From assembly GCA_949299015.1 (NCBI GenBank), contig CASFYT010000006.1:16457-80456 (forward strand): a stretch of 64,000 nt of DNA, in the 5' to 3' direction. A program made the translations under genes and the position numbers. Source of the stretch: an uncultured Bacillota bacterium (lineage in GTDB: Bacteria; Bacillota_I; Bacilli_A; RFN20; CAG-288). Positions 2,419 to 47,258 of the stretch are shown here, piece by piece (within the stretch, counting starts at the first letter, position 1; each line of letters starts with the position of its first letter). The notes below the pieces were generated by a model. It was not told where the DNA came from. It did no database searches and saw nothing but the letters and a program-made list of their open reading frames with translations.

Positions 2419-2612
2419 TTCAAAATCTCCCATCGTGATAAACCGACTCATTATATCAATCTCCATGGGGAGGGCTTATCCTTATTGATTCACTATGCCG
2501 TCAGAGGACAATGTAAGCGGTTCATCAGGGTTCTAGGGACGAGAAGTGAAAAAAATCGGTGACACGTTTTTTCCGTTTTTCTATAATCCATGCCATAAGT
2601 GAGGTATCGAAA

Positions 2613-4517
2613 ATGACACACAGACTTCATCGGCTGTCCCTCCTCGGAGTCCTCGCTCTCTTCACTCTTGTCTCCTGCGGAGAAACGTCCAGCTCCTCTC
2701 CCCTTTCCTCCTCGTCCTCCTCTTCGTCGACGGGTGATTCTTCGGGAACATCCAGCAGTTCCTCTTCGTCCCCTTCGTCTTCTTCTTCTTCTTCCTCTTC
2801 TTCCAGCTCCTCTTCCTCTTCTTCGAGTTCGACGAACGTCCAGGAGAGCTTCCTGGAATTCCAGCAGTATCTGAACGAAGAAGTCCTCTCTCAGGAAATC
2901 AAGGAGATCACGTTCACGGAATCCAATACCCAGGATGGATACGAGAACCGGGTCCGCACGACGCGCTATGGTGTCGACGAAGTCTACACGACCCTTGCCG
3001 ACAGCGAGACCTATCTCCAGTACGCCGCCATCCGGGACGACATCTTCTATACGGTCAACGGCGGAGAAGACGGCACAGTCACGATCGGACGCCAGCTGAT
3101 TTCGGATACGACCAGCGCCGATACGACGACGGAAGAGATCGCCCGCACGACCTTGGATCGCTACCTGGACATCGCCGATATCCAGAAGACGGAAATCTTC
3201 GACGTCTTTACCGAAGATGTTCAGGCCACGCTCTTCCAGCAAAACGGAAGTACTTATACTATTGCTGCCTACTGGGAAACTGGTTCCATCTATAATTATG
3301 CCTACACGTTGCGCCTGAGCATCGACGAGAACGACCACATCACGGCGCTGGAAGGCTCCGTCGCCTTTGCCGACGGCGACCACTGGGACGACGTCAACAA
3401 GGCTCCCATCAGCGAAGACGACGGCTATCGCGTCGACATCGAAGTCTCCGAAGGCGACATCATCTATGGTTCCTACAGCGCGGACGATCCCCTTCTCTAC
3501 GACTTCAGCGGCGCCTTCGTCACCAGCCTTGAGGTGAACATCTACGCCGAGGACCTCGATGGGATGGGAGGCGGCGTCACGGGAGAGCCCAACGAGCTCA
3601 AGGTCGGCGACTACCTGACGCTCGAAGTGGTCTCCTATGCCCCGGAGACGGCCGTCGACGCTCATAACGGAAGCTTCCGCATCACGGGTTCTTCCGACAG
3701 CTCCTTGGTCTCCGTCACGACGGACGGATACGGCTACTATGTTCCGGAGCAGGAGGAAGGCTTTACGGAAGGGACGTGCGAAGTCTATGTTGGAAACGTC
3801 TTCAATCCGCGTCTGGGAACGGCCATCGTCCACGTCACGGGAGGCGGCTCCTCCACACAGGGCGCTGAGCCGGTCGTCTATGGATTCGACGATCAGCCGG
3901 GATTCGAATACATCGGCAGCGAGGAGCTCGAAGGACGCTTCACGATCGACGTCTCCGCCATGGAACCGACGGTCTTCACGGCGATGACGTTGGTCTCGGG
4001 TCCCTTCCAGATCGAGGGCGACGAAATCCAGGTCGACGATCCCAACCTCCTCGGCGCCATGTTCCAGGAAAATCCGGAGGGCGGCATGAAGATCGACCTC
4101 GCGCTCATGGCGTGGGGCGGCACGACGGGAACGACCAAGATCCACATCCCCTACACCTTCAATGGCATTGCGACGACCACGGCGACCTTCGAGGTCCAGA
4201 TCGTCCAGACGCCGAAGCTGATGATGATCGACGAGCAGGAAGGATACGAGGAACTGTGGGAAGGCGAGTGCTACGGTCGCTTCAGCCTGGCCCTTGCCGA
4301 CGGCGAGAAGGGATTCTCCGTCCAGCTTGCGGGTTCGGGCCCCTTCCAGGTCACCGGCGACGAGATCGTCAGCCGGGACGAGAGCATCGCGACGGCCGTC
4401 TTTGCGGAAGTCGACGGCGCGTGGCAGATCGTCATCACGCCGCACCAGGCCGGAACGACGGTGATCGAGGTTCCTTCCATGATGGGAATCTGGCCCTACG
4501 AAGTCGTCGTCGCCTAG
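2613..4517 (+). CDS. serine-linker lipoprotein with Ig-like (Big_2-type) C-terminal repeats
   Basis: ATG at 2613 follows a GAGGT RBS and gives MTHRLHRLSLLGVLALFTLVSC (lipobox). A ~48-codon Ser-rich linker follows. Then comes LKVGDYLTLEVVSYAPE...GTAIVHVT (Ig-like) and two related C-terminal modules containing SGPFQ(I/V)xGDEI. Confidence 0.85.
   Translation: MTHRLHRLSLLGVLALFTLVSCGETSSSSPLSSSSSSSSTGDSSGTSSSSSSSPSSSSSSSSSSSSSSSSSSSTNVQESFLEFQQYLNEEVLSQEIKEITFTESNTQDGYENRVRTTRYGVDEVYTTLADSETYLQYAAIRDDIFYTVNGGEDGTVTIGRQLISDTTSADTTTEEIARTTLDRYLDIADIQKTEIFDVFTEDVQATLFQQNGSTYTIAAYWETGSIYNYAYTLRLSIDENDHITALEGSVAFADGDHWDDVNKAPISEDDGYRVDIEVSEGDIIYGSYSADDPLLYDFSGAFVTSLEVNIYAEDLDGMGGGVTGEPNELKVGDYLTLEVVSYAPETAVDAHNGSFRITGSSDSSLVSVTTDGYGYYVPEQEEGFTEGTCEVYVGNVFNPRLGTAIVHVTGGGSSTQGAEPVVYGFDDQPGFEYIGSEELEGRFTIDVSAMEPTVFTAMTLVSGPFQIEGDEIQVDDPNLLGAMFQENPEGGMKIDLALMAWGGTTGTTKIHIPYTFNGIATTTATFEVQIVQTPKLMMIDEQEGYEELWEGECYGRFSLALADGEKGFSVQLAGSGPFQVTGDEIVSRDESIATAVFAEVDGAWQIVITPHQAGTTVIEVPSMMGIWPYEVVVA
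2688..2831 (+). repeat. serine-rich low-complexity coding tract (ends with 19 consecutive Ser)
   Basis: Codon-by-codon count. It contains the run tcttcttcttcttcttcc plus mixed TCN/AGY codons. Confidence 0.9.
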
Positions 4518-29465: not shown

Positions 29466-29590
29466 TTTTGAAGGAGCATTGTTTTCAAGAAGGAATGTTT
29501 TCCTCGGGAATCGTTGAAAAAGATAACATTTTACAAAGAAACCTCTGCCGTCTATGATGATGCCGACGACTGATACAAAGGAGCATGAAC

Positions 29591-31783
29591 ATGCGAAATC
29601 ATAAGATTCTATCCCTTCTCGGCCTGATGACCCTCGTCAGCCTGGCCTCCTGCTCGAGCCCGAGCTCGACGACCTCTTCCTCCTCTTCTTCTTCCTCGAG
29701 CTCCAGCAGCTCTTCCTCCTCTTCTTCTTCTTCTTCCACGCCCGACGTCCCGGAGGTCACTTCCGTCAACTACCGTCGAAGCGGCTATCTCAACGCCAAC
29801 GTCGACTTCCTGACGGAAGACACCTACGTCCTGAGCGTTCCGGCCGACTACAGCTTCACGTACTACTCGGACAAGAGCCTTGGCGACGACCTGGAGCTTG
29901 CCCTCCACCTTTCCGAAGTCCATGAGACGGGAACGGAGGAGCAGCCTTCCCTCTATTCGGTCCCGAAGAACTTCAATGCCATCAGCTTCGTCTACGGCCT
30001 CCCCTCCCTGCTTTCCGCCCTCGGCTCGATGCTCCCCTTCGAACTGGACACGAGCCTTTTCCCGCAGGACTTCGAGGCGGCCCTTCCGGCCTACCAGGGC
30101 TATGCCGAAGCGGAGGAGGATGCGATTCCGGAGGAGACGCTTCGCGTCAACCTCGTCGACGGAGCCGGCCTTGTCTACACGGACCAGGCGGTCGTCGATG
30201 GAAAGGACAGCCTGCGCGCCTACGTCGAGAGCGACGTCTCGGGAATCTACGAGTCCCTGGCCGGCGCCGACCTCTCTTCCCTGCTGGAGGGCATCGACCT
30301 GGAGAACCTGGACCTGACTCAGCTCTTCTTCATGCTGGACACGCTCTTCCCGACGGAGGATACGATCCGTCCCATCTCCTCGATCCTGGGCCAGGTCTTC
30401 TTCATCGCCGGCGACGGATTGGACATCGACATCGTTCCGGACACGGAGAACTCGCGCGTCGACGTGGACTTCCGCCTCAACGAGACGGGCCTTTCCAAGG
30501 TCACCGACCTGCTGGTCGAGTCGGCGGGCGACATGGGCTCGATGCTGAGCGTGTCGGGCCTTGAGCTGGGCTTCACCCTCTTCACCGACGGCGAGATGGT
30601 CAATCAGTTCGGCGGCCTGCGCCTCAACGCCGGCCTCGGCGTCGAGCTCTTCCCAGGCTTCTCCATGCCGATCGGTATCGACCTGGATCTCTCCTTCGAA
30701 AACGAGAAGGAGACCCTTGCGGCCGATTACTTCGAGACGAGGAACGATGAGATCGCGGCGAAGAAGGAAGTGGACGCCGCCTTCGAGGACTTCTACGGCC
30801 GCGTGCGTTCCTACGTCCGCGGAGAAGAGGCCGGCATCGACCTCCGGAGCGCGACGTCCGCCCTCCTGGAAGGATATGCCGAGGAATATGCGACCTTGGA
30901 CGACGAAGTGAAGTTCATGCTCGGAAGCGCGGTGAGCGCCGAGTCCATCCCGGCGGCCTATCAGGACGGCCGGACGGCCCTCTCCGCCGTCCTGGAGGCC
31001 TGGACCGCTCGCGAGGAGAAGTCCTTCGGCTCCATCGGCGAAATCACGAGCTTCGTCCGGACCATCTCCGGCTACGGCTTCTGGAAGGAGGCCTTGGCGG
31101 AAGACGAAACGGGAGCGGAAATCGTCGCGGCGATCGATGAGCGCATGGATCAGGAAGTGGAGAACGCCCGGGTCCTCGCCCAACAGCTGGCTTCCCAGCT
31201 TGAAAACGGTGAAACCGTCTTCGCTGAGGACACTGTCCTTCAGACTGCCATTCAGAACTACCACACCATCCTGACCCTCGTCGAGGAAGATTCCTCGGCC
31301 CGTGCGCTGGCCGACGCCGACCAGCTCGCCGCGATGGACGAGATCCTCGCTTCGATCGACGGCTTCCTTCCCCAGGCTCTGGGCTATTATGCCGCCTCCC
31401 TGGTCGAGGCCTACCAGTCGGACAAGACCTTCGCCGACCTTCAGGCGGAATTCCTGGACGAATCCTCCTTCCGCTACGTGATTTCGGATGAGGACAGGGC
31501 CCTCTACGACTCCATCCTCCTGGAGCAGTTCTCGGCCTCTTCCAGCGCCATGGACATGGTGGACAAGGCGCTGGACGTCGAAGTCTCCTCTCTGCGCGAA
31601 GAACTTGTCACGGCGATCAAGGAGAGCACGGACGCGGCGACTTTCAGCGAAGCGACGGCGACGATTGCCTCCCGCCTTTCGGACGTCGATGAGCTGACGA
31701 CCCTCTTCCAGCTCGCGGACAAGACCGCTGGACTGGATCAGGCCCTGGAACAGGCCGAGATGTACTTCTCGACCCGGGCGTAA
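29591..31783 (+). CDS. large acidic serine-linker lipoprotein (paralogue of 45210-47258)
   Basis: MRNHKILSLLGLMTLVSLASC (lipobox) followed by 21 consecutive Ser. The ATG at 29591 has better SD spacing (AAAGGAG) than the one at 29585. By eye it is colinear with the 45210 protein. Confidence 0.85.
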   Translation: MRNHKILSLLGLMTLVSLASCSSPSSTTSSSSSSSSSSSSSSSSSSSSSTPDVPEVTSVNYRRSGYLNANVDFLTEDTYVLSVPADYSFTYYSDKSLGDDLELALHLSEVHETGTEEQPSLYSVPKNFNAISFVYGLPSLLSALGSMLPFELDTSLFPQDFEAALPAYQGYAEAEEDAIPEETLRVNLVDGAGLVYTDQAVVDGKDSLRAYVESDVSGIYESLAGADLSSLLEGIDLENLDLTQLFFMLDTLFPTEDTIRPISSILGQVFFIAGDGLDIDIVPDTENSRVDVDFRLNETGLSKVTDLLVESAGDMGSMLSVSGLELGFTLFTDGEMVNQFGGLRLNAGLGVELFPGFSMPIGIDLDLSFENEKETLAADYFETRNDEIAAKKEVDAAFEDFYGRVRSYVRGEEAGIDLRSATSALLEGYAEEYATLDDEVKFMLGSAVSAESIPAAYQDGRTALSAVLEAWTAREEKSFGSIGEITSFVRTISGYGFWKEALAEDETGAEIVAAIDERMDQEVENARVLAQQLASQLENGETVFAEDTVLQTAIQNYHTILTLVEEDSSARALADADQLAAMDEILASIDGFLPQALGYYAASLVEAYQSDKTFADLQAEFLDESSFRYVISDEDRALYDSILLEQFSASSSAMDMVDKALDVEVSSLREELVTAIKESTDAATFSEATATIASRLSDVDELTTLFQLADKTAGLDQALEQAEMYFSTRA
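29675..29737 (+). repeat. poly-serine coding tract (21 consecutive Ser)
   Basis: Codon count from the sequence. Codons are mixed TCT/TCC/TCG/AGC. Confidence 0.9.
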
Positions 31784-31798
31784 GTTCACGCATCGCTG

Positions 31799-31823
31799 AG
31801 GCCCTCTTCGGAGGGCCTTTTTG
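31799..31823 (+). terminator. rho-independent terminator
   Basis: AGGCCCTC-TTCG-GAGGGCCT followed by TTTTT. Confidence 0.85.
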
Positions 31824-31877
31824 CATCTTCGTTGTTTCGCGAAGACGGGGAAACTATAATTTTCCTGAAAGGTCGAC

Positions 31878-32813
31878 ATGGATATGGATATCAAGGAAAG
31901 CGTCGTCGAGGCGATTGGAGACACGCCTCTGATTCATCTGTCCCGTCTGGAGAAGCACTTTGCCCTGAAGGGTCGCCTCTACGCCAAGCTGGAGCGTTCC
32001 AACCCGACGGGTTCGATCAAGGACCGGACCGCCCGTTCCCTCCTGCTCTCCGCCATCGAGCGGGGAGAGGTCCGTCCGGACACGGTCGTGGTCGAGCCGA
32101 CGAGCGGAAATACGGGCATCGCCCTGGCCAGCCTCTGCGCCGCCCTCGGACTGAAGGCGGTCATCGTGATGCCGGAGAACTGCTCCCGCGAGCGCGTCCT
32201 GATGATGAAGGCTTTGGGAAGCGAGGTGATCCTCACCCCGAAGGAACAGGGAATGGACGGCGCGGTGAGGCGGGCCAGGGAATATGCCCGGTCCTGCCCG
32301 TCCTCCTTCGTCCCGGACCAGTTCTCGAACTTCGACAATTCCCTGGCCCACTATCGGACCACGGGGCCGGAGATCTTCCGCCAGCTGGATGGGCGGATCG
32401 ACCTCTTCGTCTGCGCCTTCGGGACGGGAGGGACGCTGACGGGCGTGGGCCGTTATCTGCGCGAGAAGGTCCCCTCCGTCACCCTGATCGGCGTCGAACC
32501 GGACTCTTCTCCCTTCGTCAGCCAGGGAAGGAAGGGGCCGCACAAGATCCAGGGAATCGGTGCGGGATTCGCGCCGAAGGTCCTGGACGCCTCGCTCTTG
32601 GACGAGGTCGTGACCGTCACGGACGAGGACGCCTATGAGGCGACGCGCCTTTTGGGACGGAAGGAAGGCCTCTTCTGCGGCATCTCCTCGGGATGCAACG
32701 TCTTTGCGGCGATCCGCGAGGCCAGGAAGGAGAAGTGGTCGGGAAGGAACGTCGTGACCGTCCTGCCGGACGATGGAGAGCGATATCTCTCCGTGGAGGG
32801 GCTCTATGACTGA
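31878..32813 (+). CDS. cysK: cysteine synthase A (O-acetylserine sulfhydrylase)
   Basis: Contains SNPTGSIKDR (PLP lysine) and GTGGTLTGVG. Confidence 0.95.
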   Translation: MDMDIKESVVEAIGDTPLIHLSRLEKHFALKGRLYAKLERSNPTGSIKDRTARSLLLSAIERGEVRPDTVVVEPTSGNTGIALASLCAALGLKAVIVMPENCSRERVLMMKALGSEVILTPKEQGMDGAVRRAREYARSCPSSFVPDQFSNFDNSLAHYRTTGPEIFRQLDGRIDLFVCAFGTGGTLTGVGRYLREKVPSVTLIGVEPDSSPFVSQGRKGPHKIQGIGAGFAPKVLDASLLDEVVTVTDEDAYEATRLLGRKEGLFCGISSGCNVFAAIREARKEKWSGRNVVTVLPDDGERYLSVEGLYD

Positions 32814-33639
32814 CGATTCCAAGGTCCTGGAGGAACTCCTTGCCCTCTACCAGGAAGAGAAGGGGAGGAAGCTTCCGCTGGATCGGGGCCTGTTCTATTC
32901 CTTCCTGGACGACGCCCGCCGGCTTTTGAACCTGGACTTCTTCCAGCCCCGATACGAGAGGGAGGACGTCAAACGCCTCCTCTGCCGCCTGGAGGAGAAG
33001 CTCTTCCTGATCCTTTCGGACTACGACGTCGAAGACCCGGAGGATTCCGTCCGCTACTTCCTCACGTCCCTCCCGGAAGCCCGGCGGCTCCTTCTTTCCT
33101 CGGCCAAGGCGATCCTCGAGGGCGACCCGGCCTCCGACTCGCTCCAGGAGGTCGTCTACTGCTATCCGGGATACTTCGCCATCCTGACCTATCGGATCGC
33201 CAACATCCTCTATCGGATGGGCCTGCGCTTCCTGGCCCGGCTGGCTTCGGAGGACGCCCACCGGTCGACGGGCATCGACATCAATCCCGGGGCGACGATC
33301 GGCCGCTCCTTCTTCATCGACCACGGGACAGGCATCGTCATCGGCGAGACGACGGTCATCGGAGACAACGTCAAGCTCTACCAGGGCGTCACGCTGGGGG
33401 CCCTCTCCCTCAAGGACGGGCATCTCCTCTCAGGGAAGAAGAGGCATCCCACGATCGAGGACGACTGCACCATCTACTCCAACGCGACGATCCTCGGCGG
33501 GGAGACGGTGATCGGACACCACTCGACGATCGGGGCCAACACCTACCTCACGCACCCGGTTCCGGCACACTCCCGAGTGATTCTGACGGACGGCGGAGTT
33601 CGCATCCTGACAAAGGAAAAAACGGCGGATAATTCCTAA
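32806..33639 (+). CDS. cysE: serine O-acetyltransferase
   Basis: GIDINPGATIGRSFFIDHGTGIVIGETTVIGDNV is the hexapeptide region. It overlaps the cysK stop by 8 nt. Confidence 0.93.
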   Translation: MTDDSKVLEELLALYQEEKGRKLPLDRGLFYSFLDDARRLLNLDFFQPRYEREDVKRLLCRLEEKLFLILSDYDVEDPEDSVRYFLTSLPEARRLLLSSAKAILEGDPASDSLQEVVYCYPGYFAILTYRIANILYRMGLRFLARLASEDAHRSTGIDINPGATIGRSFFIDHGTGIVIGETTVIGDNVKLYQGVTLGALSLKDGHLLSGKKRHPTIEDDCTIYSNATILGGETVIGHHSTIGANTYLTHPVPAHSRVILTDGGVRILTKEKTADNS

Positions 33640-33743: not shown

Positions 33744-33980
33744 ATGAACAATGCCGAAACGTTGCTCGTCGTCTATGATATGGTCCTCAGCGGACGTTCC
33801 TACCAGATCAAGGATCTCGTCGAGAGGAGCGGCTGCTCCCGCCGGACTTGCTTTCGCTACCTGAAGTGCATCCGCGAGCATCTCGAGCGAAAGGGAGGCC
33901 CCTACCAGCTCGTCTATGACCGCAAGCTGCGGAAATACGAACTGCGGAGGAAGGACGAAGACAAGGAAATCGTTGGCTAA
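33744..33980 (+). CDS. small stand-alone HTH protein (HTH_11/DeoR-N-like)
   Basis: Length 78 aa. YQIKDLVERSGCSRRTCFRYLKCI is the HTH. GGAGG RBS. Confidence 0.7.
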   Translation: MNNAETLLVVYDMVLSGRSYQIKDLVERSGCSRRTCFRYLKCIREHLERKGGPYQLVYDRKLRKYELRRKDEDKEIVG

Positions 33981-34003
33981 GAGCCGGGAAACCGGCTCTT
34001 TTT
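33981..34003 (+). terminator. rho-independent terminator of the HTH gene
   Basis: GAGCCGG-GAAA-CCGGCTC followed by T5. It abuts the stop of the convergent gene. Confidence 0.85.
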
Positions 34004-35661
34004 CAGTCCGGAAGCCGGTCGAAGAGCTTCAGGAGGGCGCGCGCTCCCTCCTTGGGTCCGTTTCTCCGGTCGAGGGACAGGCGCGTATACAGCCGTCCGA
34101 CGGGGATGTCCGCTGCGAAGAGCGCCTGGAAGTAGTCGGGGATGATCTTTTCGACGTCCTTCTTTCTCTGCACGGGGCCAAAGGGGTTGGCAAGGAAGGT
34201 CGACACGAGCCCCTTCTCGGAGGTCGTATTCAATGCGACTCGTTCGCCAAGAGAAAAGTCGGTAATGGCATCTTCTACGTTTTTATAGAGACGAATTCCA
34301 CGTTTGGTATCGGTATAATTGTCCGCCAACAAAAAGGCGTCTACCGGATGGAAGGTATAGGTCGTCTCATAGTCTTCGATGGGGATGACGACGCGGGAAT
34401 TGTCTTCCTCGATGTTGAAGTATACGGCGCGGTCGGCGCTCTTGAGCGAATAGCCTTGGTCGAGGTCGTCAAGCCGGACGAAGGCGCCGATCTCGGTTCC
34501 GGTCGCATAGACGCGGTCGTGGATGAGATGGAAGGTCCCCATGTCGTCGAAGATGGTGTCGATCTGGTATTCGCCCCGGGAGAGGTTCTTGACTGCCTCC
34601 AGGGTCTCGCTCTTGCCCGCCCCGGAATCGCCGAGGAAGAAGAAGTTCTTGGTCTTTTCCCCGCGGCGGATGCGGACTCCGGCGCCATGGATCGGCAGCA
34701 GGTCGCGGTCGATCATGGAGAGGTTGAAGAGCGTGAGGACCATCTTCTTGGCATAGCCGAAGTAGTCGATGTGCGCCTTCTTCGGACAGACGCCGACATA
34801 GCTTCCTCCTTCCTTGTAGTAGTAGCATTCCTCGCCGGTGTTCTCCGTCCCGAAGAGGAGGATGAAGTCGAAGTTCCGCTCGCTCGAGGAGAGGATCGGC
34901 TCGACTTGGAAGAGGTTTCCTAGGGCGACGAGGAAGCCGAGATATTCGTCGTCGAAGTAGAGCAGGCCCCGCTGGTCGTAGACGTTGACGATGACGCCGT
35001 GGCTGTGCCGGAGGTCGAAGTCCTCCTCCTTGACGCGGTGCCTCTTTTCCTGGAAGAGTCCCTTCCTCTTGTTCTCCTGCGTCTTGAGGAGGAAGGGCGG
35101 ATCGGTGACGACGCTCTCCATCAGCGGGATCTTCCGCAGGAAGGACAGGTTCCGGGGAAGGGGAATCGCCTTGCGCGTGAGCAGGATCCCGGCGTTTCCT
35201 CCCGAGGGAAGGATGCGATAGACCGTCTGCTCCCTACCGCTGACGGTCTCGTAGATGTCGCGGTAGAAGCTCGCCAGGCGCTGCGAGAGCGTCTCGAAGA
35301 GGGCGATGAACTGACGGTGCGTGATCCTGTCGGCGCTGGAGTTGTCGTAGAGGACGTAGCGTTCCTTCTGTCGATAGAAATCGTAGAGGGAGTCGATGAG
35401 GTTGAGCAGGTCGTCCCTCTTCTGCATCGAGAGCCCACGCAGGAAGGACATCGTCCGCTCGTCGCGGGTGAGGATCTGGTGGAGGAAGATCTTGGCGGTC
35501 TTGGGACCGTATTCGCGATAGTAGGCGGAATTGGGCCTTTCGGCCTTCTCCGATTCCCGGAAGTAGGCGGACAGGAGGCGTTCGAAGAGAGGATGGTCGA
35601 TGATCTCGTCGTTGGTCAGGGAGGCGACGTCCTTGTCCAGGGGCAGCAGGATCTTGTTCAT
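34003..35661 (-). CDS. PEPCK(ATP)/HprK-fold P-loop protein with an unrelated N-terminal half; function unknown
   Basis: The internal ATG at 35661 forms an ATGA overlap with the upstream gene. The C-terminal half is colinear with remembered PckA motifs: GYAKK, LPIHG, FFFLGDSGAGKSE, IFDDMG, DNSRVVIP and FLLADNY. No GRSPKDK-type motif is present. Confidence 0.7.
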   Translation of the reverse strand: MNKILLPLDKDVASLTNDEIIDHPLFERLLSAYFRESEKAERPNSAYYREYGPKTAKIFLHQILTRDERTMSFLRGLSMQKRDDLLNLIDSLYDFYRQKERYVLYDNSSADRITHRQFIALFETLSQRLASFYRDIYETVSGREQTVYRILPSGGNAGILLTRKAIPLPRNLSFLRKIPLMESVVTDPPFLLKTQENKRKGLFQEKRHRVKEEDFDLRHSHGVIVNVYDQRGLLYFDDEYLGFLVALGNLFQVEPILSSSERNFDFILLFGTENTGEECYYYKEGGSYVGVCPKKAHIDYFGYAKKMVLTLFNLSMIDRDLLPIHGAGVRIRRGEKTKNFFFLGDSGAGKSETLEAVKNLSRGEYQIDTIFDDMGTFHLIHDRVYATGTEIGAFVRLDDLDQGYSLKSADRAVYFNIEEDNSRVVIPIEDYETTYTFHPVDAFLLADNYTDTKRGIRLYKNVEDAITDFSLGERVALNTTSEKGLVSTFLANPFGPVQRKKDVEKIIPDYFQALFAADIPVGRLYTRLSLDRRNGPKEGARALLKLFDRLPD

Positions 35662-36842
35662 GAAAGCCTCCTTTCGAGTTCCTCGAGCTCGGCGACGGAA
35701 AGGCCGCTCACCGCGATCCGGATCCGCCTTCCGTCGATCGGAGCGAAGTAGATGTCCTTCCGTTCCAGTTCCTGGCAGAAGGAGAGGGCATCGTCGACTT
35801 CGAAGGTGAGGTAGAATCCGCCTTTGTAGGGGAAGTGGTGGATTCCCTTCCGGTCCAGGAGGCGTTCCAGGCGCTCGCCCATCTTCAACAGGCGCTGGCT
35901 TTCCATCTGGATCTTCTCGCGGGTGACGTAGAGGGCCGGGGCGTTGTGGAAGAATTCGGCCATCGGCCCCATCGCTCCGTTGTTGACGCAGCTGTAGGTT
36001 CCTCGGGCGATGCTCTTGAGGTCCTCGAGGAGTTCGGCGTGGTTCTTCCCCTTCTCTAGGAGGGCGAAGAGGGCTCCCAGGCGCAACCCGTAGAGACCGA
36101 AGGACTTCGAGGCGGAGAAGGCGAAGAAGAGGTCGAAATCCCACGTCTTCTCGCAGAGGATCTCCCAGAGGGGGAAAGTGCCAGGGTGATAGTCGACATA
36201 GGCGATGTCCAAAAGCAGGGTGACCTTTCGCCGATAGCCTTCCAGAAGCTGGAAGAGCTCGCGATATTCCTTTTCGTCCATGCAGTATCCCAAAGGGTTC
36301 TGGCAGGGGTCGTTGATGACGACAAGGACGCTTCCGCTGGAGAGAAGGGACGCATCGATCTTTGCCTTGATGTCATTGATGTTCAACCTTTCATCTTCGT
36401 TGAACAAGGAATAAAGGGAAAAGCCGATTCCAGCTTCCTTTGCCAGGGTGTCATAATTTGGCCAGCGGATGTCGCTCAGGAGGAGATGGGCATTTTCCTG
36501 AGCGAAGTGCTTGAAGGCAAGGTAGAGCGCGCCCGTTCCTCCCAGCGAGGCAGAGAAGGCGATGGAATAGCGATGGGCGATCCTTTCCTTCTCCAAGGGG
36601 AAGAGCCATTGCAGGACGCCCTCCTCGTATTCCTTGCTCCCGAGGACGGAGGGATAGGCCAGATAGCTCGAAAAGCGCTCCTGGATCGTCTGGTTGACGC
36701 TTTCGAAGGTGCAGAGACTCTTGTCTTCCTCGAAGAGCATGCCGGCACATCCGTTGAGGACGAGATGCCCTTCCTTCCTTCTCTTCACGGCCCTCTCCTG
36801 GATGGAGAGGATGTCGTACTTCATGTTCGTTTCCATTCTCAT
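35658..36842 (-). CDS. class-I aminotransferase, AspC/TyrB (I-alpha) type
   Basis: Motifs DPCQNPLG, DIAYVDY, SASKSFGLYGLRLG (PLP lysine) and GRRIRIAVSGL. ATGA overlaps at both ends. Confidence 0.88.
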   Translation of the reverse strand: MRMETNMKYDILSIQERAVKRRKEGHLVLNGCAGMLFEEDKSLCTFESVNQTIQERFSSYLAYPSVLGSKEYEEGVLQWLFPLEKERIAHRYSIAFSASLGGTGALYLAFKHFAQENAHLLLSDIRWPNYDTLAKEAGIGFSLYSLFNEDERLNINDIKAKIDASLLSSGSVLVVINDPCQNPLGYCMDEKEYRELFQLLEGYRRKVTLLLDIAYVDYHPGTFPLWEILCEKTWDFDLFFAFSASKSFGLYGLRLGALFALLEKGKNHAELLEDLKSIARGTYSCVNNGAMGPMAEFFHNAPALYVTREKIQMESQRLLKMGERLERLLDRKGIHHFPYKGGFYLTFEVDDALSFCQELERKDIYFAPIDGRRIRIAVSGLSVAELEELERRLS

Positions 36843-37765
36843 TCGCCTTTCTCCAGGGCGAGGAGCTCTGGCAGGGTCTCGACGTTCTTCCGGACGGTCC
36901 GCTCGGCTTCGGCATATTCCTTCCCTTCCTCGGAAGCGAAGGACTCCCCCTCGGGAAGGGGACGGATTCCCTTTTGGCTCACGAGGAACTTCCGGGAGAT
37001 GGAGATTCCCTTTTCCTTCAGGGGAAGGGAGAGGGGGAGGACGGTCTCGATGTCTCCCGTCCTCGCTTCGAGGATGGTCCGGATGGTGGCGGCGATTCCT
37101 TCCGTGGTGGCGCCACGACGCCGGGCGATGTCCGTTCCCCGTTCGACGACCCGCCTTTTCGCTTCTTCCTGCTCCTTTGCATCCCGCTGGGAGAAGGAGA
37201 CGAGGCCGATCCGCGTCTCCTGGCTGAGGAGGACGGCGTTGGGACCGTGCTCGCCGACGACCATCGGGAAGATCTCTTCGTTCTCGATTCCTTCCCTTTC
37301 GTGGAGGAAACGGCCAAGCCGAGCCGCTTCCAGCAACGTTCCGGTTCCGTATACCAGGTTTTCCTTCAGCAGGAGGCTCATCGCGTAGGTCATGACGTCG
37401 AGCGGATTGGTGGCGAGGAGGACGTCGTTCCGGTATCCGGCCCCCGAGAGCTGGCGGGCGATGTCCCGGACGATGGCGAAGGCGTCGGCCATCCCGCTGT
37501 TCCGGTCCCCGCCTTTGTCGACGCTCGGCCTTGTCCCTGCCGTGACGATGACATAGTCCAAGGAGGCGATGTCCGCTTCCGTTCCGCGATGGAATTCGGG
37601 GCCGCCCAACAGGAACTGGGCGTCGTTGAGGTCCCAGACGAAGCCCTCGATGGCGGAATCGTCCGGTCCGAAGAGGAAGACGTCCTTGGCGAGGTCCGTC
37701 CCGGAGAGGCGGCTTGCGACAGAACGCCCGACGTTTCCGATGCCGAAGATGCCGATTCGATCCAT
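36839..37765 (-). CDS. divergent L-lactate/malate dehydrogenase-family protein
   Basis: Internal ATG at 37765 with an AGGGAGGA RBS. Motifs: IGIFGIGNVG (Rossmann), GTGTLLEAARLGRF and VVGEHGPN (catalytic His). The substrate loop TAGTRPSVDKGGDRNSG is atypical. Confidence 0.8.
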   Translation of the reverse strand: MDRIGIFGIGNVGRSVASRLSGTDLAKDVFLFGPDDSAIEGFVWDLNDAQFLLGGPEFHRGTEADIASLDYVIVTAGTRPSVDKGGDRNSGMADAFAIVRDIARQLSGAGYRNDVLLATNPLDVMTYAMSLLLKENLVYGTGTLLEAARLGRFLHEREGIENEEIFPMVVGEHGPNAVLLSQETRIGLVSFSQRDAKEQEEAKRRVVERGTDIARRRGATTEGIAATIRTILEARTGDIETVLPLSLPLKEKGISISRKFLVSQKGIRPLPEGESFASEEGKEYAEAERTVRKNVETLPELLALEKGE

Positions 37766-37925
37766 ATCCTGTCCTCCCTGTTTTCTGTGCCTTATTCTAT
37801 CAAAAAACGGCTTCCGTGGTCGCTGTTTGTTGTATCTTGTTTGGAGAGGACGACCAACCGACCTCCCCAGGATTGCCGACAGGGAATCTCTGCCTGCAAA
37901 GGTGGGAGGAGACAAGGAGGGAAGA

Positions 37926-41956: not shown

Positions 41957-42055
41957 GGCTGAATCGTTTTCGTTGAAACGTCCTCCTTTTTGAGCTATCC
42001 TTGCCATGAGTTGCCTTCCGTCACTCGGAAGGACTGTGGAAAAGGAGTACCGCAT

Positions 42056-44302
42056 ATGAGAGAAGAATGGAAAGGCTTTGTCGGCGGCCATTACGAGACG
42101 GACGTCGACGTCCGCGACTTCATTCAGAGGAACTATCGTCCCTACGAAGGAGATGCCTCCTTCCTCGAGGGCCCCACCGAGGCGACCGACCGCCTCTGGA
42201 GCCGTCTCCAGGAGCTGCAGAAGGAAGAGCGCGCCAAGGGCGGCGTCCTCGACATGGAAGAGCACGTGGTCTCATCGATCAACGCCTACGGGCCGGCCTA
42301 TCTGTCGCCGGAAGGAAAGGGAGACGAGAAGGTCGTCGGCCTCCAGACGGACAAGCCGCTCAAGCGCGCCTTCATGCCCTATGGCGGCATCAAGATGGCC
42401 GAGGAAAGCCTGACGACCTACGGCTACCGCCCCGACCCGTCGCTTCACAAGATCTTCACGGAATACCACAAGACCCACAACCAGGGCGTCTTCGACGTCT
42501 ATACGCCGGAGATCCGCAAGGCGCGCCACAGCCACATCATCACCGGCCTTCCGGACACCTACGGAAGGGGCCGCATCGTCGGCGACTACCGTAGGGTCGC
42601 CCTCTACGGCATCGATTATCTCATCGCCAAGAAGAAGGAAGACTTCGCCAACACGGGTGACGGGACGATGACCGACGACGTCATCCGCCTCCGGGAGGAG
42701 ATCACCGATCAGATTCGGGCCCTGGAGGAGATGAAGAAGCTCGGACAGTCCTACGGATTCGACCTTTCCAAGCCGGCCAAGGATGCGCGCGAAGCCTTCC
42801 AGTGGCTCTACTTCGGATACCTCGCGGCCATCAAGACGCAGAACGGCGCCGCGATGAGCGTCGGCCGGATCTCGACATTCCTGGACATCTACGTCGAGCG
42901 GGACCTCGCCCGCGGAATCCTGACGGAGAAGGAGGCCCAGGAGCTCGTCGACCACCTCGTCATGAAGTTCCGCATGGTCAAGTTCGCCCGCATCCCGTCG
43001 TACAACCAGCTCTTCTCCGGGGACCCGGTCTGGGCCACCCTGGAAGTCGCCGGAATGGGGATGGACGGCCGCAGCATGGTTACCAAGAACGACTTCCGCT
43101 TCCTGCATACCCTGGAGAACATGGGCCCATCCCCGGAGCCGAACCTGACGGTCCTCTATTCGCAGCGCCTGCCGGAAAACTTCAAGAGATATGCCAGCCG
43201 CATCTCCATCCAGACCTCTTCCATCCAATACGAGAACGACGACGTCATGCGTCCGATCTGGAAGGACGACTACTCCATCTGCTGCTGCGTCTCGGCGACC
43301 GAGACCGGAAAGGAGATGCAGTTCTTCGGCGCCCGCGCCAACTTGGCCAAGTGCCTCCTGTATGCGCTCAACGGCGGCAAGGACGAGATGCTGAAGACGC
43401 AGGTCGGTCCGGAAATGGCTCCGGTCACGGGAGACGTCCTCGATTACGGGGAGGTCCTTCACAAGTTCGACCAGATGATGGACTGGCTCTCGGGCCTCTA
43501 CGTCAACGTCCTCAACGCCATCCACTACATGCATGACAAATATTATTATGAAGCGGCGGAGATGGCTTTGATCGATACCAACGTCCGGCGGACGTTTGCT
43601 ACCGGAATCGCAGGCTTCAGCCACGTCGTCGATTCCCTTTCCGCCATCAAGTATGCCAAGGTCCGTCCGATTCGGGACGAAGACGGCATCATCGTCGACT
43701 TCGACGTCGAAGGCGACTTCCCGCGGTACGGAAACGATGACGAGAGGGCGGACGAGATCGCCGTCGACCTCCTCAAGGCCTTCATGGGCAAGATCCGCAA
43801 GCACCACACCTATCGGAACTCGGAGCCGACGACCTCCATCCTGACCATCACCTCCAACGTCGTCTACGGCAAGGCGACCGGCGCCCTTCCCGACGGGCGC
43901 AAGAGGTCGGAACCCTTCGCCCCGGGAGCCAATCCTGCCTACGGCGCGGAGAAGAACGGCCTTCTGGCCTCGCTCAACTCGGTTGCCAAGCTCCCCTATG
44001 AGTATGCGCTCGACGGCATCTCCAACACTCAGACCATCAACCCTTCCGCCTTGGGGAAGACCCTGGAGGAACGCGTCGAGAAGCTGGTCCTGGTCCTCGA
44101 CGGATACTTCGTGAACGGAGGGCACCACCTCAACGTCAACGTCTTCGGAAAGGAAAAGCTGGTCGACTGCATGGAGCATCCGGAACGCCCGGAATACGCC
44201 AACTTCACCATCCGCGTCTCGGGCTACGCCGTCAAGTTCATCGACCTGACGAGGGAGCAGCAGCTCGACGTCATCTCCCGCACATGCCACGAAGTGCTCT
44301 AG
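42056..44302 (+). CDS. pflB: formate C-acetyltransferase (pyruvate formate-lyase)
   Basis: ICCCVSA (active-site Cys-Cys) and TIRVSGYAV (glycyl radical). ATG at 42056 follows AAAGGAG. Confidence 0.97.
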
Positions 44303-45021
44303 GACGCGCCTTCTCCGTCGAGACCTTCGGATCGGTCGACGGCCCCGGACTGCGCTTCGTCCTCTTCCTGACGGGCTGTCCCTTCCATTGCCTGTATTGT
44401 CACAACCCCGAGTGCTGGAGCGGCGCCGACTCCTTCGAGGTCACGGCGCAGGAGGTCCTTCAGAAGGCCCTCCGCTATCGTTCCTACTGGGGGAGGGAAG
44501 GAGGACTGACCGTCAGCGGAGGCGAACCGCTTCTGCAGATGGACTTCCTTCTGGAGCTTTTCCCCCTCTTCCAGGAAAGGGGGATCTCGACCTGCATCGA
44601 CACCTCCCTGGCGCCCTTCACGAAGGAGGAACCCTTCTTCTCCCGCTTCCGGTCGCTGATGGAGAGGACCGACCTGCTTTTGGTCGACGTCAAGGAGATG
44701 GACGAGGAAAGGCATGTCCGCCTGACGGGAAGGGGGAACGCCAACGTCCTCGAGGGGATCCGCTACCTGGATTCGATCGGAAAGAAGATCTGGATCCGTC
44801 ACGTCCTCGTCCCGGGCTACACGGACTTCGACGAAGACCTTCGCGCCCTGCGCTCGTTCCTCGATTCCCTCCACAACGTCGAACGGGTGGAGGTCCTTCC
44901 CTACCATAGCCTGGCCCTCGGAAAGTATCGGAAGCTTCAGCTCCCCTATCCGCTGGAAGGCGTTCCCTCGCCCACAAGGGAGAGGATCGACAACGCCCGG
45001 CGCATTCTCGGGGCGATCTGA
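44284..45021 (+). CDS. pflA: pyruvate formate-lyase activating enzyme
   Basis: [13 protein letters not shown] and [12 protein letters not shown] (radical SAM CxxxCxxC). Confidence 0.95.
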
Positions 45022-45209: not shown

Positions 45210-47258
45210 ATGAACAAACGAAGAATTCTTCTGCCGGTCGTGGCGGCACTCCCGCTTCTGGCTTCCTGTTCCGAGGCCAGCGGCGTTTCCTCGACGTCCT
45301 CGTCCTCTCCCCTTCCCGTCCTCCTTCACGAGAACTATCGTCGGGAGGGGACCTTTTCGATGCAGCTCGGCCTTTCAATCGCCGGCATCCAGGGCGTGGA
45401 GCAGCTCTATGAGAGTCCCATCTCCCTGGACTACCAGGTCGACGAACGGAAGAATTACGGACCCAGCGCCTCCTTCGAGATCCGTCCCTACGACCTCGAC
45501 GGAACGCAAGAGGAACGATTGGACCAGGCCAACCGGAATCGGTCGGTCCTCCATGCCCTCTTCTCCGGAACCTCGACCCTCCTGGACGCCCTGGAGCAGG
45601 ATCCGGGATTCCTTCCCGTCCTGGCCGACCGCTATTCCGGCTCGTTTGAGGACAGCGGGCAGATTCCCGACGAGACGTTCGCCTTCCAGACCTTCGACTC
45701 GCTCACCTACGTCGTCGATACGACCCGGGAGGACGGCAAGGACGTCCTCCGCTTCCTGGCGGCGCAGGAAGAGACGGACGACGGAGGGCTGAACATCGAT
45801 TTTACGAACCTGCAGATCGACGTCCCCGCCCTTCTTCACTATCTTCAGGACCTTCTTCCGGGAGAGGCGGTGCTCCGGCCCATCTTCGCCACGGTCGGGG
45901 ACGTGGTCCAGTTCCTGGCCAACGGCCTTTCCCTCCGCCTTTCGACGCCCTCCGCGGAAGAGACAAAGATCACCCTCTTCCTCAACGAGGAGGGAAGGAC
46001 GACGCTTTCCCGTTCCCTGAGCAATGCCCTCGGGACGACGATCCTGGAAGGCCTGAGCATCGGAGAGATGAGCCTTTCGGTCTCGCTCTTCGACGACGAG
46101 ACGCTGTTTAACCAGCTGGAAAGCTGCCACGTCGACTTTTCCCTGACCCTGCCGCAGGCCTCCCTGGACCTCGACATCGAGGCGGAGTTGGAAAGGGAGC
46201 ACGAGAGGATCGAGGACGACCGCTTCGACGCCTTCCCACAGGACATGGAACAGAAGATGGCGGTCTGCGCCGAGGTCCAGGACTTCTACGATGCCGTCAC
46301 GGACGTGATCCCCTGGCAGGATGAGATTCTCGGAGAAGGGAGCGTCGATCCCCAGAAGGTCGACCTCTCCCATGCTGCCGTCGCGCAGATGCAGGAACAG
46401 GCCGAAAAGTACTTCGCCTTCTCCGAGGAGGGAAAGGCGCTGCTCGGAAGCCGCTTCCAGGAGGCGTCAAGCAGCGAAAGCCTGTCGAACATTCTTCTTT
46501 CCGCTCATCAGGAAGGTGTCGATGCCATCGATCGGCTTCGAGAGCGATTTGCGGAACTCGAAGATGGATTGACGGATGACAATTATCAATCGATCTATCA
46601 GGATGTTGCATCGTATATGAACTGGGAACAAGGGATGAGGGACTACGGTGCCCAAGAGGAAATGGAAGCCTTCGATACCTATCGACAAGACCGGATGGAC
46701 CGGGTGGAACTCGCCTTGCAGGAAGCCCGCCCGGCCTTCGACGCCTTCGTTTCGAATCCCGGCGAAGACAATCTGGACACGGCCGTTTCCCTCTGCCAGG
46801 AAATCGACGACCTCCTCTCGCTGGACTCCCGCTACCTGACGGGCGACATCCAGGATCGTCAGCAGGCGCTTTCGGAAGCCTACCAAGAGGAGACCCAACC
46901 CTTGGCGGAGGCCTACCATCAGTACTTCGCTGCGCTGCTTCCTTCCCTGGACTACGAAGGCCTGAGTTCCCTGGCGGCCACGCCGGCCGTCTCCCATTCG
47001 GCCTTCTATTCCGTCGACGCCCTCTCGGAGGCGGAGCGCGAGACGATTTCCTCCCTGCTGAGGGGAGAGGCGCAGCGCCTGAAGCAGAATCTTCTGGACC
47101 ATTCCTCCTCCTACGCCGACCTCGAGCAGCAATACCTGGCGGACCAGCAGAGCCTTGCGACGCTGGAGGAGACGGAGCGCAGCCTCCTTTCGACGACCCG
47201 CTATGCCTCGGACTGCAAAGACTTCAAGGTCGAGCTGGAATCGATCCTCCGTTCCTGA
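45210..47258 (+). CDS. large acidic lipoprotein (paralogue of 29591-31783)
   Basis: MNKRRILLPVVAALPLLASC (lipobox) with a short Ser-rich linker. TATAAT and AAGGAGG lie upstream. Blocks shared with the paralogue include NYRR(S/E)G, IP(E/D)ET, LRPI..., LFxD(G/D)E and LDLD. Confidence 0.85.
   Translation: MNKRRILLPVVAALPLLASCSEASGVSSTSSSSPLPVLLHENYRREGTFSMQLGLSIAGIQGVEQLYESPISLDYQVDERKNYGPSASFEIRPYDLDGTQEERLDQANRNRSVLHALFSGTSTLLDALEQDPGFLPVLADRYSGSFEDSGQIPDETFAFQTFDSLTYVVDTTREDGKDVLRFLAAQEETDDGGLNIDFTNLQIDVPALLHYLQDLLPGEAVLRPIFATVGDVVQFLANGLSLRLSTPSAEETKITLFLNEEGRTTLSRSLSNALGTTILEGLSIGEMSLSVSLFDDETLFNQLESCHVDFSLTLPQASLDLDIEAELEREHERIEDDRFDAFPQDMEQKMAVCAEVQDFYDAVTDVIPWQDEILGEGSVDPQKVDLSHAAVAQMQEQAEKYFAFSEEGKALLGSRFQEASSSESLSNILLSAHQEGVDAIDRLRERFAELEDGLTDDNYQSIYQDVASYMNWEQGMRDYGAQEEMEAFDTYRQDRMDRVELALQEARPAFDAFVSNPGEDNLDTAVSLCQEIDDLLSLDSRYLTGDIQDRQQALSEAYQEETQPLAEAYHQYFAALLPSLDYEGLSSLAATPAVSHSAFYSVDALSEAERETISSLLRGEAQRLKQNLLDHSSSYADLEQQYLADQQSLATLEETERSLLSTTRYASDCKDFKVELESILRS

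Follow-up and report, generated by a model that had tools for sequence, protein, structure and literature searches.

The 64-kb window analysed here (the whole stretch of DNA, from an uncultured Bacillota bacterium) contains an operon of three genes whose products most likely act together in making or using oxaloacetate and aspartate. The genes encode a dehydrogenase (DH), an aminotransferase (AT) and a divergent relative of phosphoenolpyruvate (PEP) carboxykinase, referred to below as KIN (Table 1). In the preferred reading, to which a probability of about 0.5 can be assigned, the predicted activities form a node leading from PEP through oxaloacetate to aspartate, with DH reducing another 2-oxo acid.

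Table 1. Features of the operon and its flanks (positions in the window).
Feature	Position	Strand	Description
DH	36839..37765	minus	308 aa; ATG at 37765, stop TGA 36841-36839; LDH/MDH family
AT	35658..36842	minus	394 aa; class I aminotransferase, AspC/TyrB type (subgroup I-alpha)
KIN	34003..35661	minus	552 aa; stop 34003-34005; highly divergent PEP carboxykinase superfamily member
Ribosome-binding site GGGAGGA	37772..37778	minus	6 nt upstream of DH start codon; direct sequence reading
Hairpin	33979-34000, to 34003 with T run on plus strand		9-bp stem, GAAA loop; T run directly after
HTH-like ORF	33744..33980	plus	78 aa; convergent with KIN; HTH matches sub-threshold only

The three minus-strand genes are joined by two ATGA overlaps of stop and start codons, and all the coordinates given for them in a first-pass annotation of this DNA hold. 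The first overlap, at 36839-36842, joins the DH stop to the AT start (ATG at 36842-36840), and the second, at 35658-35661, joins the AT stop to the KIN start (ATG at 35661-35659, with AAAGGAGG just before it). The promoter should lie within the gap of about 160 nt between DH and a divergent YjeF_N-type gene, where a search for the sigma-70 consensus gave no match. Searches of the 64-kb window found neither paralogues of DH, AT or KIN nor a canonical pckA. The genes pflB/pflA, a formate source, are located 4 kb from the operon.

The same gene order, DH-AT-KIN, occurs in related loci (L001, L002, L162, L163 and L164/L165) whose G+C content ranges from 31 to 59%, so the linkage is not unique to this genome. 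KIN is 58-81% identical across these loci, as against 31-55% for the DH orthologues. In each of the 14 related loci in which the junction was examined, AT and KIN overlap or are separated by no more than 3 nt, and the two genes overlap or are adjacent in 16 of the 16 clade loci checked. Given this recurrence and the tightness of the AT-KIN junctions, the arrangement is not due to chance, and the earlier proposal of a single expression unit is supported. AT and KIN make up the conserved core of the operon; DH is a fast-evolving add-on gained in one sub-clade.

The assignment of KIN to the PEP carboxykinase (PEPCK) superfamily draws on its predicted structure, sequence profiles and conserved residues. 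In the AlphaFold2 model (pLDDT 86), the body of the protein has the two-domain architecture of PEPCKs, including E. coli PckA (PF01293, PRK09344), and residues 1 to about 95 form an additional helical module, which is absent from homologues of about 490 aa. All of the 50 Foldseek matches listed from the PDB are PEPCKs and span both domains; the best of those listed is 2pc9_B (E 9e-14, 439 aligned columns). The aligned length is 410-450 columns with ATP-class structures and reaches about 590 with those of the GTP class, at TM values of 0.4-0.5. Profile comparison with hhalign against PckA (E 1.3e-5 to 1.5e-6) begins at KIN residue 95 and PckA residue 8, and KIN aligns to positions 97-413 of the NCBIfam PEPCK profile. 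The view that KIN lacks the N-terminal substrate domain of PckA, as had been proposed from the letters alone, is therefore not supported: the model aligns to whole PEPCKs over at least 410-450 columns, the hhalign alignment reaches back to PckA residue 8, and the PEPCK-specific Y-x-G-x-x-K-K motif is invariant in the family. KIN differs instead in its added helical module, about 95 residues long, and in the remodelling of the region where R65 lies in PckA.

The conserved residues point in the same direction. Y300, G302, K305, K306, H325, S346, K350, S351, D372, D373 and R423 are invariant in 96 members of the KIN family and align with PckA Y207, G209, K212, K213, H232, S250, K254, T255, D268/D269 and R333, although the register of the DD pair is uncertain by one motif. 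Y300 and R423 are thus the aligned counterparts of Y207 and R333; K306, H325, D372/D373 and K350-S351 align with the PckA metal ligands K213, H232, D269 and T255, the last being replaced by Ser, and R396 probably corresponds to K288. In PEPCKs, the aligned residues form the site for Mn2+, Mg-ATP and enolpyruvate, oxaloacetate or CO2. The spacing of Y-x-G-x-x-K-K, the His upstream of the P-loop, GxSGxGK(S/T), DD and the Arg of N-(S/T)-R-V-x-x-P is equal in the two proteins. A counterpart of R65, a key ligand of oxaloacetate, PEP and CO2, was not located in the KIN alignments, which are of low confidence there, and the R65 loop is unrecognisable; the candidates are the invariant R149 and R199. 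Nine other arginines are invariant in the family, and the remodelled region carries the family-specific invariants R97, R101, R134, R149 and R199.

Despite this shared fold, KIN is only about 14% identical to PckA and falls under all curated cut-offs. No Pfam or NCBIfam model, every PEPCK HMM included, exceeded its cut-off: PF01293 (PEPCK_ATP) reached 14.9 bits against 26.5, over residues 299-354 only, and NF006821 reached 23.5 against 369. Five other family members are likewise below the PEPCK cut-offs. By score, KIN is consequently not a bona fide full-length PckA, and the locus is more than an ordinary operon of annotated genes. When 1.84 billion proteins were searched with a family profile, only 520 clusters at 50% identity were recovered, so canonical PEPCKs were not reached; judged by such profiles, the KIN family is separate from them. 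It is large and present in gut bacteria. RefSeq and UniRef already call many of its members PEPCK, other RefSeq labels being hypothetical, and literature searches turned up no enzyme assay or other biochemical work on it. The PEPCK types described in a review are ATP-, GTP- and PPi-dependent only (PMC10441589).

AT passes the Pfam class I/II model (Aminotran_1_2, E 1e-33, 117 bits against 19.7) and is under the family-level NCBIfam cut-off (NF006719, 101.7 against 377 bits). In the PDB it matches 4emy and 3rq1 best, both of them uncharacterised structures, with AspAT and TyrB ranking next. At about 25-30% identity to E. coli AspC and TyrB, it has all of their catalytic, PLP-binding and carboxylate-binding residues: G38, Y70, T109, W140, N194, D222, Y225, S255, K258, R266, R292, S296 and R386, with R292 and R386 completing the dicarboxylate-binding set of AspAT. 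Of these, Y70, W140, N194, D222, Y225, K258, R292 and R386 are conserved in every full-length aligned sequence, the truncated L075 lacking the N-terminal positions. Positions 39, 41, 47, 69 and 297, which we take to be the AspC-to-TyrB specificity switches, are occupied by M, F, L, A and C, a non-polar set that is TyrB-like and unlike AspC. Aspartate therefore need not be the main substrate of AT. Arg is found at position 139 in the clade that contains DH.

DH passes the Pfam cut-offs for Ldh_1_N and Ldh_1_C. The family assignments first made for all three proteins are supported. The NCBIfam models for LDH and MDH are all far under cut-off (TIGR01771, 131.6 against 303.55 bits; MDH models, 111.9 against 283 bits or lower), and the best PDB matches are L-LDHs (E 9e-26). 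The residues R109, N140, R171, H195 and T246 are retained, Glu replaces Asp168 in the window and in L001, and the loop has a 2-residue insertion. The substrate loop TAGTRPSVDKGGDRNSG, noted as atypical in the first-pass annotation, corresponds to residues 75-91. Specificity position 102, a Gln in L-LDHs, is Pro in five of six orthologues and Gln in L164; in none is it the Arg which in MDH binds the 4-carboxylate of oxaloacetate. With Arg102 missing, L-LDHs as the best PDB matches and the MDH models below cut-off, a malate dehydrogenase is not supported. Of the oxaloacetate node originally envisaged, the AT and KIN legs are supported, but the leg from oxaloacetate to malate fails without Arg102. 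DH is best classified, from its sequence, as an LDH-like L-2-hydroxyacid dehydrogenase. A comparable pairing is the 'aromatic lactate dehydrogenase' route of Bifidobacterium, which combines an aminotransferase with an LDH-family enzyme (PMC13274450). This route and L-2-hydroxyisocaproate dehydrogenase (L-HicDH) share with DH an aminotransferase partner and a specificity loop that is neither LDH-like nor MDH-like; unlike the present operon, these systems include no PEPCK-like gene. L-HicDH (1hyh) is among the matches of DH (E 2.7e-16), although weaker than the L-LDHs.

In the proposed node, KIN would catalyse a PEP-carboxykinase-type reaction (PEP + CO2 + nucleoside diphosphate <-> oxaloacetate + nucleoside triphosphate) and AT would interconvert oxaloacetate and aspartate. 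We infer that the flux is likely anaplerotic in these fermentative Bacillota, from PEP to oxaloacetate to aspartate, and the aspartate so made would supply purine, pyrimidine and arginine synthesis. The substrate of DH would most plausibly be pyruvate or a hydrophobic or aromatic 2-oxo acid, the latter arising when the amino donor of AT is not glutamate. The gene contexts of KIN elsewhere support this proposal. KIN recurs beside aminotransferases: it lies 16-24 nt downstream of class V AGXT/BhcA-like enzymes, next to an IlvE-type enzyme, and in fusion with an aminotransferase-like domain. In 18 loci KIN is located 4-17 nt downstream of fhs (formate-THF ligase), and purE-purK-purL-purC or folD-purB come after it; in other related loci it is divergent from pyrB-pyrC-carAB, downstream of argG-argH, or near gdhA, glnA and AsnC/Lrp genes. 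The pur, pyrB, argGH and gdhA/glnA neighbours belong to pathways that consume aspartate or handle nitrogen. One KIN variant, of 673 aa, follows gap.

It is unlikely, on balance, that KIN is instead a PEPCK-fold enzyme which decarboxylates and phosphorylates, or carboxylates, a 2-oxo acid or enol other than oxaloacetate. Such a substrate would be made or consumed by the partner aminotransferase, giving a path from an amino acid through a 2-oxo acid to a phosphorylated product, from which DH would divert some of the 2-oxo acid to the L-2-hydroxy acid. The hydrophobic TyrB-like pocket of AT, the non-polar Pro102 of DH, the remodelled R65 region with the invariants R97, R101, R134, R149 and R199, and the distance of the family from canonical PEPCKs are all consistent with this alternative. 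The partners of KIN, moreover, are aminotransferases of three fold classes, and proteins of 2071-2170 aa combine KIN with an aminotransferase-like domain in one chain. In L170, KIN adjoins an IlvE-type aminotransferase, with an L-lactate-oxidase-like flavoenzyme nearby, and these neighbours do not fit an aspartate role. However, KIN keeps every other PEPCK substrate and metal residue, and oxaloacetate explains the aspartate-consuming neighbours (pyrB, argGH, pur) more simply. We know of no reaction of the kind that this alternative would entail.

A route from serine, earlier regarded as equally possible, is improbable. Here AT, acting on serine or a glycine/glyoxylate-type substrate, would make hydroxypyruvate, DH would reduce it to glycerate, and KIN, a glycerate (2-hydroxyacid) kinase of a new class, would deliver phosphoglycerate into glycolysis, a scheme that resembles the serine cycle in its first half. 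Related loci share with the serine-cycle segment (Sga, HprA, GckA, FtfL/FolD) an aminotransferase, a 2-hydroxyacid dehydrogenase, a kinase-fold enzyme, fhs and folD. KIN directly follows fhs, with folD next, and the order AT-fhs-KIN occurs in L034 and L072. In L014 and L022, class V AGXT/BhcA-like aminotransferases (serine-glyoxylate family) lie directly upstream of KIN, the one in L014 itself following purD. The formate source near the operon would also suit such a route, and a PEPCK site could conceivably hold a 2-hydroxy acid on Mn2+ in the manner of enolpyruvate. The stereochemistry, however, is unfavourable: products of the LDH family are L-2-hydroxy acids, whereas glycolysis uses phosphates of D-glycerate, so DH, unlike the D-specific HprA type, would convert hydroxypyruvate into L-glycerate. 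The AT of the window is AspC/TyrB-type with R292 and not a serine- or AGXT-type enzyme, and the Y207-, K213-, H232- and R333-type residues of KIN fit Mn2+-assisted enolate/CO2 chemistry. The supply of aspartate for purines explains the fhs/pur context equally well. Scanned against Pfam and NCBIfam, KIN matched no glycerate kinase family (GlxK/GarK, MOFRL or plant GLYK) at E up to 0.1, a result that excludes membership and not activity; to our knowledge, KIN is unrelated to these three known families.

That KIN is a protein kinase/phosphorylase of the HprK/P type, which forms the second branch of the PEPCK-like superfamily, regulating the partner aminotransferase or central metabolism, is very improbable: its P-loop segment (PIHGAG...LGDSGAGKSETLEA...DD) resembles, in our own reading, the HprK/P signature more than PckA, with His-Gly before the P-loop and a helix after it ahead of the DD motif, and the translational coupling and aminotransferase-domain fusions could reflect a physical complex, but Pfam HprK is absent at E up to 0.1 while PEPCK_ATP appears, the listed Foldseek matches are PEPCKs covering both domains, and KIN has the invariant Y-x-G-x-x-K-K motif of PEPCKs and their N-terminal beta domain, a domain that HprK/P is not known to have.

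At the 3' end of the operon, the hairpin fills the space between the stop codons of KIN and the HTH-like ORF. It folds with energies of -19.7 and -17.3 kcal/mol (z about -2.9 on both strands) and is a probable terminator common to the two genes. The convergent ORF described in the first-pass annotation is present as stated and is a syntenic neighbour of the operon: its position is not occupied in this way in L002 and L164, but in L001, L162 and L163 it holds either a homologue or another small ORF that is similarly long.

The three minus-strand genes encode an LDH/MDH-like dehydrogenase (DH), an AspC/TyrB-type aminotransferase (AT) and a divergent PEPCK-like protein (KIN). As far as sequence can tell, the finding is a conserved module of an aminotransferase and a divergent PEPCK, in which the kinase-fold member comes from a large family and has a predicted activity. 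DH-AT-KIN is neither an ordinary, securely annotated aspartate/oxaloacetate operon nor evidence for a wholly new pathway. The placement of the three genes and their ATGA overlaps in the first-pass annotation hold at every coordinate. Start and stop codons overlap in this way at both the DH/AT and the AT/KIN junction, and good Shine-Dalgarno sequences lie upstream of DH (GGGAGGA) and KIN (AAAGGAGG). A consensus promoter scan upstream of DH gave no match. The HTH gene described earlier as converging on the 3' end of the operon is present as an ORF, and the 22 nt separating its stop codon from that of KIN are occupied by a hairpin, which was missed by the consensus terminator scan despite the T run on the plus strand. 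Within the 64-kb window there is no second copy of DH, AT or KIN and no canonical pckA, and scans for Rfam families and tRNA genes were also empty.

Features of the operon and of the surrounding window
Feature	Position	Strand	Size	Remarks
DH	36839-37765	-	308 aa	
AT	35658-36842	-	394 aa	
KIN	34003-35661	-	552 aa	
HTH-like ORF	33744-33980	+	78 aa	convergent on KIN; HTH matches all sub-threshold
Hairpin	33979-34003		9-bp stem	GAAA loop; T run 3' of the stem on the + strand
Cysteine-synthase-like and serine-acetyltransferase-like ORFs	31878-33639	+		41-nt overlap
Lipoprotein-like ORF	802-2466	-		
Lipoprotein-like ORF	2559-4517	+		
Lipoprotein-like ORF	29585-31783	+		
Lipoprotein-like ORF	45210-47258	+		
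Stretch with an antisense ORF (771 aa) opposite the 732-aa poly-Ser protein	29585-31924		771 aa	
Pyruvate formate-lyase and activating enzyme	41990-45021			read from translations; ~4 kb from the operon

The relationship of KIN to PEP carboxykinases emerges from its fold. No Pfam or NCBIfam model reaches its cut-off, weak PEPCK matches being limited to the surroundings of the P-loop, and single-sequence and profile searches of KIN against PDB sequences returned nothing significant; the fold search alone succeeded. A confident AlphaFold2 model (17 homologues as input; pLDDT 86, pTM 0.84) was compared with the PDB using Foldseek, and every one of the 50 matches listed is an ATP- or GTP-class PEP carboxykinase. 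Top among them is the Thermus PEPCK 2pc9_B (E 9e-14, TM ~0.5), where 439 of 511 columns align and both PEPCK domains are covered. The first-pass annotation had KIN lacking the N-terminal substrate domain of E. coli ATP-dependent PEPCK (PckA), which this alignment contradicts; a stand-alone P-loop core was rejected because the fold includes both domains.

Most of the active site is retained as well. Using hhalign, KIN 247-450 was aligned to PckA 148-366 (E 1.3e-5), and a permissive run with 96 family sequences aligned KIN 95-552 to PckA 8-523 with a probability of 90%. Invariant across those 96 sequences are Y300, G302, K305/K306, H325, S346, K350, S351, D372/D373 and R423, aligned with PckA Y207, G209, K212/K213, H232, S250, K254, T255, D268/D269 and R333, respectively, as well as R396, the probable counterpart of K288. 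In established PEPCK enzymology, these positions bind Mn2+ and Mg-ATP and make up most of the enolpyruvate/oxaloacetate/CO2 pocket. KIN differs from PckA in residues 1 to ~95, which form a helical module without PckA counterpart in the AlphaFold2 model and are missing from KIN homologues of ~490 aa. Another departure from PckA is the helix that KIN has after its P-loop, a trait of HprK/P. The PckA R65 loop is not recognisable in KIN by permissive hhalign, the N-terminal part of which has near-zero confidence, and the KIN half where R65 would fall contains the family-specific invariant arginines R97, R101, R134, R149 and R199. PDB matches to PckA are mostly E. coli variants and provided no richer PEPCK profile. 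The ~490-aa subfamily (P0284, P0300 and similar proteins from the KIN profile search; locus L174, 1554-3044), hosted by Clostridium and Erysipelotrichaceae MAGs, matches KIN from residue 100-160 onward only, and a 673-aa variant, P0304, is encoded immediately after the gene gap (L175).

When 1.84 billion representative proteins were searched with a KIN profile, just 520 clusters came up at E up to 1e-3, which marks the family as a discrete group that stays separate from canonical PEPCKs. At 90% identity it comprises more than 5,387 clusters. Its members are spread over gut and pathogenic Bacillota and Fusobacteriota; the species scan found them in Clostridium, Erysipelotrichaceae, Anaeroplasmataceae, Turicibacter, Anaerococcus, Peptostreptococcus and Fusobacterium, and carriers include Clostridium botulinum/sporogenes, C. 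tyrobutyricum, Fusobacterium varium/ulcerans and Anaeroplasma. RefSeq and UniRef name them 'phosphoenolpyruvate carboxykinase' or 'hypothetical protein', the former label having a weak basis, with no curated model behind it. A search of the literature on PEPCK-like proteins and novel PEPCK types found no description of the activity of this family; a review of the enzyme distinguishes ATP-, GTP- and PPi-dependent types only (PMC10441589).

Operon conservation was judged on fetched contigs encoding graded KIN relatives. The linkage is not unique to this genome, as the complete DH-AT-KIN operon occurs in L001, L002, L162, L163 and L164/L165, loci with a G+C content of 31-59% compared with ~60% in the window. 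Compared with the window proteins, the KIN of these loci is 58-81% identical and the AT 48-73%, but the DH no more than 31-55%. More distant loci of the same clade (L003-L008, L036, L168/L169; KIN identity 44-54%) carry AT-KIN without DH. The AT-KIN junction in the clade always spans -11 to +3 nt, while DH-AT spacing varies from -8 to +113 nt. Since AT-KIN is kept with a tight junction and DH is divergent and loosely attached, the selected unit is AT-KIN, to which DH is a peripheral, fast-evolving addition. Scanning metagenomes with an alignment of three DH sequences gave generic LDH/MDH relatives only (at most 31% identity) and no further operons; the back-translated patterns were too generic. 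The HTH ORF, cysK, cysE, YjeF_N, SDR, GntR and ABC neighbours recur in the closest relatives only, which reflects synteny rather than function; the HTH gene was accordingly rejected as an operon regulator.

AT, aligned with E. coli AspC and TyrB, keeps every catalytic and binding residue (G38, Y70, T109, W140, N194, D222, Y225, S255, K258, R266, R292, S296 and R386). Arg292 in the AspC/TyrB subgroup marks recognition of dicarboxylates (Asp/oxaloacetate, Glu/2-oxoglutarate). Of six positions taken here to be AspC-to-TyrB specificity switches, five are non-polar (M39, F41, L47, A69 and C297). This makes AT a likely TyrB-like enzyme of broad specificity, which would take hydrophobic or aromatic substrates too. 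The PDB entries of its nearest solved structures, 4emy and 3rq1, name no function beyond 'Aminotransferase class I and II'. At alignment position 139 ('DIRWPNY' in the window AT, ~residue 125), an Arg precedes the PLP-stacking Trp140 in the DH-carrying clade and L003; in the remaining KIN-linked aminotransferases this residue is Met, Ala, Gly or Tyr, and in AspC/TyrB it is Ser/Thr.

DH is a genuine LDH/MDH-family protein whose best matches are L-LDHs and which retains R109, N140, R171, H195 and T246. Malate dehydrogenases are defined by Arg at position 102, which is Pro in five DH orthologues, Gln in one and Arg in none. The specificity loop varies in both sequence and length, and position 168 of the window DH is Glu. 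Without Arg102 and with L-LDH-like matches, DH is unsupported as a malate dehydrogenase; that assignment was rejected, and the oxaloacetate-to-malate step proposed earlier falls with it. The features of DH suggest an L-2-hydroxyacid dehydrogenase acting on pyruvate or on some non-polar 2-oxo acid, of the same general kind as L-HicDH or as the aromatic lactate dehydrogenase of Bifidobacterium, which acts after transamination (PMC13274450).

Gene neighbourhoods were counted in 80 loci kept from at least 461 with KIN relatives in a one-genome-per-species scan. Among the two genes before KIN, formate-THF ligase is the commonest (18/80 loci, gaps of 4-17 nt), followed by class I aminotransferases (13/80); downstream, AsnC/Lrp regulators (12), PurE (9), PurK (5), GdhA (4) and FolD (4) prevail. 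In Anaeroplasmataceae, KIN lies within purine operons (fhs-KIN-purE-purK-purL-purC or fhs-KIN-folD-purB). Other arrangements are AT-fhs-KIN (L034, L072), argG-argH-KIN (L052) and AT-KIN divergent from pyrB-pyrC-carA-carB (L168). A class V AGXT/BhcA-like aminotransferase stands between purD and KIN in L014 (Turicibacter) and 16 nt upstream of KIN in L022, and in L170 an L-lactate-oxidase-like flavoenzyme (upstream, opposite strand) is followed by KIN and an IlvE-type aminotransferase. Three fusions of 2071-2170 aa from prokaryotic contigs (P0330, P0340, P0347) carry a class I/II aminotransferase-like domain (~716-861) N-terminal to a KIN-like catalytic domain (~1380-1900), the same order as AT-KIN in the window. 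This domain escapes detection by the AspC-like AT profile; the fusions therefore support an aminotransferase partner generally, not this AT subfamily. One of them (L173, 8001-14255) is encoded on a prokaryotic MAG contig amid SLH- and cohesin-domain genes. These varied contexts tie KIN, in several independent ways, to PLP aminotransferases and to aspartate-consuming or amino-nitrogen pathways.

The best-supported reading, with a probability of about one half, is that KIN would perform PEPCK chemistry (PEP + CO2 <-> oxaloacetate) and the translationally coupled AT would interconvert oxaloacetate and aspartate. Where the TCA cycle is incomplete, KIN-AT would feed aspartate to PurC/PurA, PyrB and ArgG, which would explain the KIN neighbours in other loci. 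As a speculative extension, the mixed pocket of AT may allow further amino acids to serve as amino donors for oxaloacetate, and DH may reduce the 2-oxo acid that this leaves (or pyruvate), regenerating NAD+. The substrates of KIN, AT and DH and the direction of flux are thus predictions, set beside an observed fold, residues and gene contexts. The three-gene observation of the first-pass annotation stands and its interpretation holds in part; its malate dehydrogenase leg and missing KIN domain do not.

A more tentative proposal is that KIN forms a fourth branch of the PEPCK superfamily, new to biochemistry, with an obligate PLP-aminotransferase partner, a partnership suggested by the translational coupling, the upstream class I/V aminotransferases, the class IV enzyme adjoining KIN in one locus and the 2,100-aa fusion. 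Such a branch might channel unstable oxaloacetate straight to transamination or apply PEPCK-type chemistry to another 2-oxo acid. Taken by itself, action of KIN on another 2-oxo acid is unlikely. Less probable still is the serine-hydroxypyruvate-glycerate-phosphoglycerate route, raised earlier, in which KIN would be a novel kind of glycerate kinase: the fhs/folD contexts and neighbouring AGXT-like aminotransferases favour it, but LDH-family enzymes are L-stereospecific, AT is AspC-type and KIN has PEPCK-type enolate/CO2 residues. That KIN is an HprK-like regulatory kinase is highly improbable. Should KIN prove to be a true PEPCK, a link between PEP and oxaloacetate is gained or confirmed in the metabolic models of its hosts, and PEPCK acquires a fourth sequence class; if not, the recurrent aminotransferase pairing points to an unknown reaction joining amino-acid and central carbon metabolism.

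Several other features of the window were observed. The cysteine-synthase-like ORF (PALP family in syntenic loci) and its serine-acetyltransferase-like partner, with hexapeptide repeats, lie a short way upstream of the HTH ORF; L001, L162 and L163 have the same pair beside the operon. Four large lipoprotein-like ORFs start with a signal peptide and Cys, followed by long Ser runs (up to ~30 consecutive). Long antisense ORFs lie opposite the poly-Ser protein, KIN, AT and DH (335-400 aa for the last three) and many other stretches; judged by composition, they are non-genic artefacts of ~60% G+C DNA, with low third-position G+C, as expected. The pyruvate formate-lyase pair would supply formate and may bear on the fhs-KIN linkage in other lineages.
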